A stretch of DNA of 16,788 nt from a virus (lineage: Duplodnaviria; Heunggongvirae; Uroviricota; Caudoviricetes): the IMG/VR virus record IMGVR_UViG_2667528074_000009; one strand, given 5' to 3'. The notes beneath the pieces are model-generated. The model ran no database searches and was not told the DNA's origin. It saw only the letters and a program-made list of their open reading frames with translations. Of the stretch, positions 8,574 through 15,501 are shown piece by piece. The position numbers and the translations under genes are program-made. Position 1 is the stretch's first letter. Every line of letters starts with the position of its first letter.

Positions 8574-8618
8574 TAAAATTTCTCCCGTTAAAAATTATTT
8601 ACCAATCTCAAACAAAAC

Positions 8619-9581
8619 TTATCCCCTGAACCCTGGTGGAATTTCGGTGTCCGGTTCAGAAATATGATTCACACAACGCTGCGCGGGACCACGCCACAGT
8701 CGAATAACCAGTTCATCCCATTTTTCACGGAGTTTTTCCGGGCTCTTGATGTTTTTTATCCAGAACGGATCCCGTTGTGCCCGACTGAACATTTCGCAAA
8801 TTTGTCTGTGACTTCTTCCATCCAGCATCCGCATTGTGCGCACATCATTGGCCCACGTAGTCCAGTTGGGCTCTTTCGGTCGCGTGATCTCACCATCATC
8901 GCTCGCAGCCTGCTCGTACAGGTTTAAAACCCGCCCCCAGATCCACTGTGCACACGTCAAATCCTCACGGGTTCCCCACTGGCGTTTTTTTACACTGAAC
9001 ACAACTGCGTCAGGATGGCGGGTTAAAAACTCCTGTTCAGCCGTCTGCGGGTCCGGTTGCGAAGCTTCCGGACGAGAAGATCTTTTATCTGACGGATCAG
9101 GTTTTAATACTGACGGATCGGGGCCAACCATCGCCCCCCTAACCGGCTGTTTTTTATCAACGGTTGATCCATCAAAATTTGACGGGTCAACCGTTGAGGG
9201 GGCAATATTTGACGGGTCAACGGTTGGCTGGTCATTTTTTGCCGGGTTAATTTTTCTTTTCGGTTTATATGCCTCACGCGCCGCCGCCGCTGCTGCTTCG
9301 AGTTTTTCCACATTAAGACGGTAGATATTGCTTTCATTACGCCCACCGACCTTACGTTCCTCCTTCGTCAGCCAGCCGTTCTTTTCCAGTTCAGCTATCG
9401 CAGCTTTAACCGTTGATTCACTCTTTGCCCCAATCTGACGACGAATGGTCTCCACTGCAGGCCATGACACACCTTCGTCATTGCTGTAGTCTGCAAGGCG
9501 AGCCATTACTGCCACTCTGGATAAGATCATGCCGGTGAAGGCACACCCTTCCCAGACAAGACCATGAAGCTTGCTGCTCAT
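8619..9581 (-). CDS. Phage replication initiator (lambda O-like), 320 aa, with internal repeat linker
   Basis: N-terminal winged-helix region (ARLADYSNDEGVSWPAVETIRRQIGAKSESTVKAAIAELEKNGWL); central Pro/Asp/Ser-rich linker with STVDPSN and PDPS repeats encoded by DNA iterons; position between the regulators and the rest of the early-right operon. Confidence 0.75.
   Translation of the reverse strand: MSSKLHGLVWEGCAFTGMILSRVAVMARLADYSNDEGVSWPAVETIRRQIGAKSESTVKAAIAELEKNGWLTKEERKVGGRNESNIYRLNVEKLEAAAAAAREAYKPKRKINPAKNDQPTVDPSNIAPSTVDPSNFDGSTVDKKQPVRGAMVGPDPSVLKPDPSDKRSSRPEASQPDPQTAEQEFLTRHPDAVVFSVKKRQWGTREDLTCAQWIWGRVLNLYEQAASDDGEITRPKEPNWTTWANDVRTMRMLDGRSHRQICEMFSRAQRDPFWIKNIKSPEKLREKWDELVIRLWRGPAQRCVNHISEPDTEIPPGFRG
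9090..9270. repeat. Putative replication origin: four direct iterons (core TGACGGRTC) plus AT-rich tract, inside the O-like gene
   Basis: TGACGGATC at 9090 and 9111; TTTGACGGGTCAACCGTTGA at 9178-9197 and TTTGACGGGTCAACGGTTGG at 9208-9227 (18/20 identical, 30 bp apart); near-palindrome ATCAACGGTTGAT at 9156-9168; then a T-rich tract at 9232-9270. Same layout as ori-lambda within gene O. Confidence 0.6.
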
Positions 9582-10321: not shown

Positions 10322-10389
10322 GAATACCTACAGGTAAACAAAAGTCAATACCCGTGGGTTGTTTACCTTGTGGTAATCGCCTCTATTAT
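10322..10389. promoter_or_regulatory. OR-like operator/promoter region: three TACC-N4-GGTA half-palindromes with divergent promoters
   Basis: Sites TACCTACAGGTA (10326-10337), TACCCGTGGGTT (10350-10361), TACCTTGTGGTA (10365-10376). Leftward promoter candidate: -35 TTGACT (complement of 10344-10349), -10 TATTCT (complement of 10322-10327). Rightward candidate: -35 TTGTTT (10360-10365), -10 TATTAT (10384-10389). Confidence 0.55.
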
Positions 10390-10395
10390 TTACCT

Positions 10396-10815
10396 ATGGA
10401 CAAATATGAATTTAGACGAAAGCAACTCATCAAAATTCGTGATGAGAAATGCGATGGTAAAGCGGTTAACGTGGCCAGAAAAATCGGCCGCGAGCCTTCT
10501 TATGTATCAAGAATGTTGTACCCAGAGGGGAAAAAAGGGAAAAAACGGATCGCTGATGATATGGTGGAGATTATCGAAGAATCCTTTGGGTTACCCAGGG
10601 GATGGATGGATGGTATCGTTTCATCATCAACGAACACAACCTCCAATTATGAAACAAGGGTTCTAACACCACGACAACGTATTTTTTTAGATCTCTTGGA
10701 CGAACTGCCAGAAAGCGAAGCGGATAACCTATTAAAAACTCTTGAAGAGAAAAAACAATATTACAATATGATCTACGAAGAAATCAGCAAAAAGAAAGCA
10801 CGAAACGCATCATAG
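10396..10815 (+). CDS. CI-type repressor (DicA-like), 139 aa, probably leaderless
   Basis: N-terminal HTH (GKAVNVARKIGREPSYVSRML); C-terminal LTPRQRIFLDLLDELPESEADNLL resembles the DicA C-terminus as recalled. ATG 10396 lies about 7 nt after the candidate -10 with no RBS. The ORF-track start at 10354 falls inside the operator/promoter. Confidence 0.7.
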   Translation: MDKYEFRRKQLIKIRDEKCDGKAVNVARKIGREPSYVSRMLYPEGKKGKKRIADDMVEIIEESFGLPRGWMDGIVSSSTNTTSNYETRVLTPRQRIFLDLLDELPESEADNLLKTLEEKKQYYNMIYEEISKKKARNAS

Positions 10816-13041: not shown

Positions 13042-15501
13042 ATGCGCACTGATAAAGAAGAATTTGCATTATATTGTGAAGCAAAAAATGACAAAGTCAG
13101 AAAACGCCTTGGAATTAAAGGTGGTTTTTACTGGACTACAGCAAAAAAATTATCTGTTGCCATCTCCCGCTGCATTACCGCAATGGATGACAACGATTAT
13201 GATGAAGACGACTTTAAAAAACCCGTCCGCGTCCATTTACCCGTTGTGAATGACCTTCCACCTGAAGGCGTGTTTGATACTGAATTCTGTAACCGTTACG
13301 AAAAAGGCGGGGAAGATGGCATCACAATGGTATTTATCGCGCCCTCACCCTCTGCGCAGGACAAACCAGCCAACACTGACAATACCAACGTCAACGGCGA
13401 AGACATGACTGAGATTGAGGAGAACATGCTCCTGCCGGTTTCAGGTCAGATTCTGCCTGTTCGATGGCTGGCACAGCACGGCAGCAAAAAACCGATCACA
13501 CACGTTTCGCGGGACGAACTGCGCGCATTACATAACGCACAGGATGAAAAACTTCCCGCCGTTACCGCGCTGGCTATCTCAAATAAAGCAGCGCAACTCG
13601 AACCGCTGGAGATTCGCGATCTCCACAAACTGGTGCGAGACACTGACAAAGTTTTCCCCGCCCCCGTAAATTCGGACCTGGGACTGATAACCTCTTTTAT
13701 CGAAGCATACCTGGACGCCGACTACACCGATCGCGGTCTGCTGACAAAAGAGTGGATGAAAGGAAATCGTGTTTCGCGTATCACCCGTACGGCTTCCGGT
13801 GCAAATGCCGGTGGCGGGAACAAAACCGATCGCAATCCGAATTTAGTACACACCTTCGATACGCTGGATGTGGAGATTGCAGCAGCCACACTTCCGATGG
13901 ATTTTAATATTTATGAAATTCCGGGCAGCGTTTATCGTCGCGCAAAAGACATCGTCCTGAAAAGAGAAAGTCCGTTCAAAGAATGGTCCGCAGCACTTCG
14001 CGCAACCCCGGGTATTCTTGACTATTCCCGCGCCGCTATTTTTGCACTTATCCGGAGCGCCCACCCTGAGTTTTATCACTACCCGGGACGCCTTCAGGGG
14101 TATATCAACGCCCACTTAACGGAGACTGATCACGAGAACCCCAGCAAGGAAACTCTCGCTGCTGCACGACATACACCGGAAAAGGATATCCTGGAAGAAG
14201 TTAACCGCGAACTGGCTGCTGAACGCGAAACAGAAGAAGAAAAAAATAATGAGGAAAAATCACAACCGTCTGACGCAATGGCAGATGAACAGGCAACGAC
14301 TACTGAAGCAATGGGACAGGATACAACTGAACATCGCCAGGACACACAATCGCTGGATACTCAGGCACAGATAAATCCGGTTAATCAGGTAAAAGTTACC
14401 GCTGTCGAAGTAAACAAAATTATGCAGGCAGCCAATATCAACCAGCCTGATGCCGACAAAATACTGGCAGTCCATCGCGGTGAGTTCGTTGACGGAATTA
14501 GCGACCCGAATGATCCGAAATGGGTTAAGGGGATTGAAACCCGCGATTCTGTGAACCAGAACCAGCCCGAATCGGAACAAAACGACCAGAAAGCGGAACA
14601 AAACAGCCCAAATGCGTTACAAAACGAGCCAGAAACGAAACAGCCTGAACCAGAAGAGCAACAAGAACCGGAAAAAGTCTGCACCGCCTGCGGTCAGACC
14701 GGCAGCGGCAACTGTCCTGACTGTGGCGCGGTGATGGGCAACGCAACATACCAGGAAACATTCGATGAAAAAAATCAGGCTGAAGTTCAGGAAGATGATC
14801 CGGAGGAAATGGAAGGCGCTGAACATCCGAACAATGAGAATGCTGGTAACGATCAGCATCACACCAGCGATAGTGAAACTGGCGAGGCGGCAGATCCCTT
14901 AATTGCGGTGAACGGTCATCACGTTATCACATCCACCAGCAGAGTGTGGATTCACCTGTCGGTCGACCTTGAAACGATGGGAACAAATCCTGATGCGCCA
15001 ATCAACTCTATTGGCGGTAAATTTTTTGATCCGGCAACCGGAGAGATGGGGCCTGAATTCAGTAAAGCTATCGATCTGGAAACCTCCGGCGGAATCATCG
15101 ACCGTAAAACAATAAAGTGGTGGGCGAAACGATCACGCGAAGCACAATCCGCTATTTTTACCGATGAAATCTCGTTAGATGTTGCTCTCCGGCTATTCAT
15201 AGAATTTATCGAAAAAAACTCCGGCGGGTGTTTTGTCCAGGTATGGGGAAATGGAGCCAACTTCGACAACGTAATTTTACGCCGTTCATATGAACGGCAG
15301 GGGATCCCCTGCCCATGGCTTTACTACAACGATCGCGATGTACGCACAATCGTTGAACTGGGTAATGCCATTGGCTTTGATGTCAGAATGGCTATTCCAT
15401 TCGAAGGCGTACCCCACAATGCGCTGGACGATGCCCGTCACCAGGCAAAACAAGTTTCAGCAATCTGGCAAAGACTGATCCCGCGTCAGGCTGATTTTTA
15501 A
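13042..15501 (+). CDS. Large early-left-operon protein (819 aa) with C-terminal DEDDh-type 3'-5' exonuclease domain, acidic low-complexity linker and CxxC-N9-CxxC zinc ribbon
   Basis: C-terminal motifs VDLETMG (Exo I), WGNGANFDNVIL (Exo II) and HNALDDARHQA (Exo III); central region about aa 380-620 is rich in E/D/Q/N/T; CTACGQTGSGNCPDCG around aa 545-560; GAGG RBS 8 nt upstream. Occupies the slot of ydfE (truncated in K-12 Qin). Confidence 0.75.
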   Translation: MRTDKEEFALYCEAKNDKVRKRLGIKGGFYWTTAKKLSVAISRCITAMDDNDYDEDDFKKPVRVHLPVVNDLPPEGVFDTEFCNRYEKGGEDGITMVFIAPSPSAQDKPANTDNTNVNGEDMTEIEENMLLPVSGQILPVRWLAQHGSKKPITHVSRDELRALHNAQDEKLPAVTALAISNKAAQLEPLEIRDLHKLVRDTDKVFPAPVNSDLGLITSFIEAYLDADYTDRGLLTKEWMKGNRVSRITRTASGANAGGGNKTDRNPNLVHTFDTLDVEIAAATLPMDFNIYEIPGSVYRRAKDIVLKRESPFKEWSAALRATPGILDYSRAAIFALIRSAHPEFYHYPGRLQGYINAHLTETDHENPSKETLAAARHTPEKDILEEVNRELAAERETEEEKNNEEKSQPSDAMADEQATTTEAMGQDTTEHRQDTQSLDTQAQINPVNQVKVTAVEVNKIMQAANINQPDADKILAVHRGEFVDGISDPNDPKWVKGIETRDSVNQNQPESEQNDQKAEQNSPNALQNEPETKQPEPEEQQEPEKVCTACGQTGSGNCPDCGAVMGNATYQETFDEKNQAEVQEDDPEEMEGAEHPNNENAGNDQHHTSDSETGEAADPLIAVNGHHVITSTSRVWIHLSVDLETMGTNPDAPINSIGGKFFDPATGEMGPEFSKAIDLETSGGIIDRKTIKWWAKRSREAQSAIFTDEISLDVALRLFIEFIEKNSGGCFVQVWGNGANFDNVILRRSYERQGIPCPWLYYNDRDVRTIVELGNAIGFDVRMAIPFEGVPHNALDDARHQAKQVSAIWQRLIPRQADF

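Follow-up and report, generated by a model that had tools for sequence, protein, structure and literature searches.

The window analysed here, a 16,788-nt stretch of viral DNA taken at its full length, carries at 8619..9581 on the minus strand an open reading frame of 320 aa that matches PHROG 391 ('replication initiation O-like') over its entire length (aa 1-320, E 1e-107 in a profile search) and is referred to below as the initiator gene. Along the locus we find, in order, a repressor gene (10354-10815, plus strand), a cro-like gene, a cII/YdaT-like gene, the initiator gene, a DUF1627 gene, and a DUF977/Ren-like gene, and an integrase gene and a RecE-like exonuclease gene lie on the far side. 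The order repressor, cro-like, cII-like, initiator puts the gene in the usual place of O, and we identify the locus as the early region of a lambdoid prophage of the Rac-like type. Prophages of E. coli are its closest relatives (93% nucleotide identity for ECOR29; at the protein level the best identity is 95%), and a match covering at least 80% of the initiator gene is found in 1511 complete E. coli genomes. The RecE-like exonuclease gene (13042-15501) holds a 21/42-nt tandem repeat at 14563-14642. The DUF1627 gene begins 45 nt past the initiator gene (8574-8618 gap), and no helicase-loader gene (P or DnaC-like) is present in the window or directly downstream of the initiator gene. The ECOR29 and ES5 prophages have a gene for a DnaC-like 'ATP-binding protein' after the initiator gene, and the prophage of the window, lacking this gene, may not replicate. 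The viable phages SfIV, SfII, mEp460, and Klebsiella phage 1 LV-2017 are likewise without an adjacent loader gene.

The initiator was modelled with AlphaFold2 from 34 database homologues. The N-terminal domain (aa 1-104; 9270..9581, minus strand) is predicted to fold into four helices, a beta-hairpin wing, and one further helix, and Pfam places HTH_36 at aa 25-71 (32.8 bits against a cut-off of 25). Foldseek comparison of the model with the PDB returned weak matches to the winged helices of MarR, PadR, PaaX, and GntR (all E >= 0.008) and no match with E <= 0.001, that is, generic winged-helix regulators only. We presume that this winged-helix DNA-binding domain, as modelled, is the reader of the repeats described below. 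It is assigned to HTH_36 and not to Phage_rep_O (PF04492), the family that lambda O itself matches, and remote homology between this domain and lambda O was rejected, with an hhalign probability of 0.2% and no detectable similarity. Residues 109-173 (9063..9257, minus strand) have pLDDT values below 50 and form a predicted disordered linker, and both repeat elements are thus located within linker-coding DNA. The C-terminal domain (aa 182-293; 8703..9038, minus strand) is helical and confidently modelled (pLDDT ~90), and it is a homologue of the lambda O C-domain, with 42% identity over 112 aa to lambda O aa 171-270 (BLASTP, E 1e-24). The tail after it is disordered in the model and ends in a DnaT-like segment (aa 298-320; 8622..8690, minus strand), GPAQRCVNHISEPDTEIPPGFRG, which aligns with the last 23 residues of E. 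coli DnaT and matches its extreme C-terminus (PDB 9zbt_D, 2ru8, 6aep). On the whole-protein DnaT model (primosomal protein I, NF002770) the initiator scores 17 bits against a cut-off of 201, and only the last 22-23 residues align; annotations as 'primosomal protein I' arise from this tail. Initiators whose C-domains differ can bear this same tail, and many phage O genes are 90-94% identical over their last 63 nt.

An earlier note on this DNA had reported four copies of TGACGG(A/G)TC in the middle of the O-like gene, two of them extended to 20-mers, and this was borne out. The 16.8-kb window contains four copies of the motif TGACGGRTC (9090, 9111, 9180, and 9210; 0.17 expected), all within 9090-9218, and none of 200 shuffles reached as many. 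The 20-mers at 9178-9197 and 9208-9227 differ at two positions. An extended 18-mer, TTGACGGGTCAACSGTTG, is found at 9179 and 9209 (0.04 matches expected), and an opposite-strand copy with two mismatches lies at 9158. The repeats stand in the middle of the minus-strand reading frame and encode the peptide ...DQPTVDPSNIAPSTVDPSNFDGSTVDKK...GPDPSVLKPDPSDK. The four copies had been taken as one set of iterons; they do exist, but they are split over two elements, two belonging to an array with a 15-nt period and two to a separate GATCCGTCAG pair.

The first element, a putative iteron array at 9164..9235, consists of five dyad units of the 12-bp palindrome TTGA-SSSS-TCAA at an exact spacing of 15 bp, with plus-strand starts at 9224, 9209, 9194, 9179, and 9164. 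The three central units are TTGACGGGTCAA, TTGAGGGGGCAA, and TTGACGGGTCAA, and the outer units are degenerate. Palindromes of the form TCAACSGTTGA are interleaved with the units at 9157, 9187, and 9217, and Tandem Repeats Finder detects repeats with periods of 15 and 30 nt over 9157-9247. On the gene strand the 15-nt unit reads GAC CCG TCA AAT nTT, with variants. The second element, at 9089..9119 on the minus strand, is a conserved pair of GATCCGTCAG(T/A), with copies 21 nt apart at 9110-9119 and 9089-9098, each containing one Dam site (GATC). Some 30 nt of GC-rich DNA lie between the array and this GATC pair.

The repeats had also been described as followed by an AT-rich tract. A tract of 70% AT over 40 nt, encoding YKPKRKINPAKN, is indeed present at 9231..9270. 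The gene is read leftward, however, which places this tract upstream of the array and not, as in lambda, downstream of the repeats; nor is it conserved, and SfIV-like and Klebsiella relatives lack it. On the downstream side of the array, again with respect to the gene, a moderately AT-rich stretch at 9076..9122 with GATC sites at 9079, 9095, and 9116 is a candidate unwinding or regulatory region. The region homologous to it is the richest or equal-richest 40-nt stretch for AT in 7 of the 11 family members profiled, the window included (68-72% AT), and in the window itself it reaches ~65% AT and falls outside the three most AT-rich stretches. The highest AT content over 40 nt anywhere in the gene is 70%, compared with 80% in lambda.

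Across 87 genes, GATC sites occur at 16.7/kb in the pair region versus 2.6/kb in the rest of the gene, and the Asp codon is GAT at the GATC pair and GAC in the array. This clustering suggests, by analogy with oriC or P1 oriR, a control by Dam and SeqA. SfII, YeP1, Klebsiella phage 1 LV-2017, and vB_EcoS-733R5 have genes for Dam-type DNA adenine methylases on the downstream side of the initiator gene, no further than one gene away. The only DnaA-box-like sites, two copies of TTATCCAGA with one mismatch at 8756-8764 and 9516-9524, are more than 300 bp from the array; they are inverted relative to each other and flank the repeat region inside the initiator gene, which may be chance.

About 90 copies of the initiator gene were compared, drawn from 80 species-representative genomes and 8 records of phages or prophages; Erwinia, Edwardsiella, Morganella, Yersinia, Providencia, Pantoea, and Rahnella were among the genera of Enterobacterales sampled. 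The codon analysis was anchored on the protein, so that codon choice was free to vary. The repeats, whose possible absence from relatives had been raised in the earlier note, are present in all full-length copies examined, with 3 to 11 [DE]xS units per gene. The Ser residue of these linker units is encoded by TCA in 505 of 589 cases (86%), versus 187 of the 1424 Ser codons elsewhere in the same genes, and in the linker units Lys is AAA (250/251) and Val is GTA (80/86). The DPS[VL] motif in 75 relatives shows the same fixation (GAT 75/75, CCG 69/75, TCA 75/75, GTA 69/75), and the 12-mer GAT-CCG-TCA-GTA is nearly invariant in those 75 genes. At 57 conserved, degenerate columns of the N-domain, the mean major-codon fraction is 0.51, and synonymous sites are saturated. 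The pattern of codon fixation is also seen in 8 divergent representatives. An overlapping gene was rejected as its cause, as the open stretches in the other five frames are short and unconserved in the 87 genes.

The residues themselves are exchanged more freely than the nucleotides. The variable residues before Asp (Ser, Phe, Ile, and Pro) all share the nucleotides nYT, and in the subfamily of the window the unit TTGACCCCTCAA (Ile-Asp-Pro-Ser) and its reverse complement TTGAGGGGTCAA (Val-Glu-Gly-Ser) both occur. Since the Asp-Pro and Glu-Gly forms are reverse complements of each other, the site is kept and the peptide is not. Among close relatives we also observed synonymous changes inside the units (CCG to CCC in ECOR29) and the gain or loss of units. 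These comparative data indicate that selection acts on the nucleotide sequence, from which the peptide for the most part follows. The repeats could in principle be a by-product of a slippage-prone linker rich in Asp, Pro, and Ser, with no role at the DNA level: the peptide is predicted to be disordered, tandem units of 15 nt can expand by slippage, and their number does range from 3 to 11 per gene. Such an origin of the repeats would leave unexplained why, across genera, 86% of the units share a single Ser codon out of six when synonymous sites elsewhere are saturated, and why unlike residues (Ser/Phe/Ile/Pro, or Asp-Pro for Glu-Gly) replace one another with the nucleotide motif retained. We regard this explanation as highly improbable, and a purely protein-level account is effectively excluded. 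The proposal that DNA and protein are co-constrained accordingly stands for the DNA, which is conserved at synonymous sites, but not for the peptide, which is predicted to be disordered, varies in unit number, and tolerates unlike residues; its sequence seems to be set by the DNA, not constrained alongside it.

The repeat sequence also varies with the type of N-domain, as seen for lambda, mEp460, Min27/SI5, ZF40, and two subfamilies within the family itself. The gene annotated 'Primosomal protein I' in mEp460 (LR597641.1) has a C-terminal half 85% identical at the nucleotide level to that of the window, whereas its N-domain is unrelated to that of the window and has no Pfam match. It carries repeats at the same place in the gene, followed by an AT-rich stretch with AT-rich 12-mers, and it too has no adjacent loader gene, but its repeats are unrelated, being about four 23-nt dyad units of the type CATCNGGNCATTTTGACCNGATG at a spacing of 23-24 bp. 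Distant HTH_36 domains are found in Min27, SI5, and ZF40, where the repeats are GGGGCAGGAGCTGCCC-type units in the first two and a 66-nt repeat in the third. Within the family, N-domains like that of the window pair with nTTGA...TCAA units, and SfIV-like N-domains with TCTGA...TCAAAA units. SfIV, SfII, and the Klebsiella and Yersinia temperate phages share the N-domain family (~66% identity) and the layout, and they have the related unit aaaTCTGAc.C.TCAaAAtct, in which the left half-site is TCTGA as against TTGA in the window. Their GATCCGTCAGTA...GATCC(G/A)TCA pair is identical to that of the window. The units of this group are all in one orientation, whereas those of the window type occur in both, and the copy numbers differ. 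Some members of the Shigella/Klebsiella/Yersinia group carry other C-domains, e.g., Phg_2220_C. A type-specific origin with a matching initiator N-domain is the classical lambdoid pattern.

The non-random repeats, the selection at the DNA level, the co-variation with the N-domain, and the lambda-like position together support the reading that an origin is embedded in this gene. We consider it likely, on the strength of these sequence comparisons, that a Rac-like lambdoid prophage has its replication origin at these repeats, within the gene of its own initiator. Several points count against this reading, namely the maximum of 70% AT, the GC-rich spacer of ~30 nt, the 15-bp spacing, the variation of the units, and the missing DnaC-like gene. 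In addition, selection on the nucleotides means a DNA or RNA function and need not mean the firing of an origin. The repeats might be selected DNA sites with a different task, such as autoregulation or titration of the initiator, timing by Dam and SeqA, or the binding of another phage or host factor. The roughly six-fold enrichment of GATC, the Dam methylase genes that follow the initiator gene in the four phages named above, and the lack of a strong AT-rich unwinding element would all fit such a task, and codon fixation shows that the DNA has a function without telling which one. On the other hand, in relatives whose flanks were read the N-domain is the one constant partner of the repeats and the downstream genes vary by locus, and the position and architecture match those of the lambda origin, with a homologous C-domain. 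The functions are also not exclusive, and plasmid iterons both fire and regulate. We therefore judge a role other than that of an origin to be rather unlikely.

The conserved feature could also be a hairpin formed in a single strand, either in mRNA, where it would act on translation or stability, or in unwound DNA, as a signal of the primosome-assembly type. The region does fold better than its shuffles (z = -4.6 in the window and -1.1 to -8.8 in 16 relatives), and it contains a 20-nt inverted repeat of 90% complementarity at 9157-9197. However, arrays of dyad-symmetric units fold well automatically, so these z-scores do not discriminate; they also range widely and are weak in some members. 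The fold moreover varies among subfamilies in which the unit is constant, and the invariant 12-mer GATCCGTCAGTA lies outside any conserved stem. A hairpin thus appears improbable to us as the conserved feature.

For the proposed embedded origin, the most likely course of initiation would be as follows. The winged helix of the N-domain, probably as dimers, would bind the TTGA-SSSS-TCAA dyads tiled every 15 bp, and the complex so formed would weaken the duplex in neighbouring DNA of moderate AT content. Unwinding would most likely take place in the region of the GATC-bearing pair just downstream (GATC at 9079, 9095, and 9116), and Dam methylation and SeqA could regulate this pair. The lambda-O-type C-domain, together with the DnaT-like tail, would next recruit the DnaB helicase of the host by a route that we infer from these domains. 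A more speculative proposal, to which we give only a small chance, is that the family may fire its in-gene origin without a phage helicase loader: the DnaT-like tail would tap the host restart primosome or DnaB-DnaC, with the hairpin-prone dyad array as the entry structure and the invariant GATC pair as the point of Dam/SeqA control. If true, this would be a mechanistically distinct way to start lambdoid replication.

At NCBI, members of this family are mostly annotated as 'helix-turn-helix domain-containing protein' or 'GntR family regulator', in clusters of thousands, and the replication role of the family is largely unannotated there. L17 of the Stx phage phiP27 (AJ298298; 10334-11260 of the record), annotated 'unknown', is a member of the family with the same repeat layout, and the DnaC-like gene L18 is next to it. 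We also considered plasmids that might use the initiator gene as their replicon, and this candidate was rejected: the 24 matches are prophages on megaplasmids, chromosome-sized 'plasmid' records, and small circular prophage fragments. Among these matches, the 15,977-bp circular 'plasmid' pZ1322PEC0161-2 (NZ_CP148542.1) is a piece of a related prophage that runs from the immunity to the lysis genes, and either faulty assembly or the formation of a dv-like product could account for it. A frameshift falling precisely on the GATC pair interrupts the initiator gene of this record, which is therefore uninformative on function.

If confirmed, the result would provide an origin and an iteron consensus for a family of initiators that prophages carry in thousands of E. 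coli genomes and across the Enterobacterales. Members also occur in phage P27 and in the serotype-converting phages of Shigella, and there the gene often lacks an annotation. Confirmation would also allow better annotation of prophages, prediction of replication-type incompatibility or interference among co-resident prophages, and the design of ori-based vectors. The linker is also a clean example of a coding sequence selected for its nucleotides and not for its amino acids. The established picture of lambdoid replication is unchanged. Among the papers searched, we found none describing the origin of this initiator family; the work retrieved on such origins concerned lambda and Stx phages only, and nothing relevant came up on DnaT in phage initiation.

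The lambda origin consists of iterons and an AT-rich tract in the central part of gene O (PMC7466680). In the annotated lambda record, four iterons lie at nt 349-433 of the O gene, with start-to-start distances of 20, 24, and 23 bp, and the richest AT stretch of the gene (80% over 40 nt) starts at nt 436. In the initiator gene of the window, the array is at nt ~347-418 and the GATC pair at nt 463-493. The array and the lambda iterons thus occupy matching positions in their genes, indicating the same placement between two domains, of which the C-domain is homologous. Like ori-lambda, the window has direct repeats with dyad symmetry in linker DNA between an N-terminal DNA-binding domain and a C-terminal domain, and in both cases cro and cII precede the gene within the rightward early operon. 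The ori-lambda arrangement with unrelated iterons that had been put forward is supported by computation as to gene position and C-domain homology, but not as to the side of the AT tract. The two also differ in their repeats, which are 18-mers every 20-24 bp in lambda and 12-bp palindromes every 15 bp in the window; at 15 bp, successive sites would face different sides of the helix. In lambda an 80% AT tract abuts the repeats, and the window has no such tract. Further features that set the window apart from lambda are the separate, highly conserved GATC pair, the DnaT-like tail, the absence of a P gene, and the HTH_36 N-domain.

Origins of the P1 oriR and oriC type contain GATC-bearing repeats in an AT-rich region, and by analogy the window would resemble them in having an iteron block beside a less stable region with clustered Dam sites. 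It differs from them in that it has no adjacent DnaA boxes, belongs to another initiator family, and has its candidate origin inside a coding sequence. Iteron plasmid origins of the RepA/pi/RepE type have iterons of 17-22 bp about two helical turns apart and adjacent DnaA boxes, and the window departs from this class in its 15-bp spacing and in the distance of its DnaA-box-like sites from the array. As judged from sequence, the origin of the window would join the known lambdoid kind, and what is new in it would be the reader domain and the architecture of the iterons.
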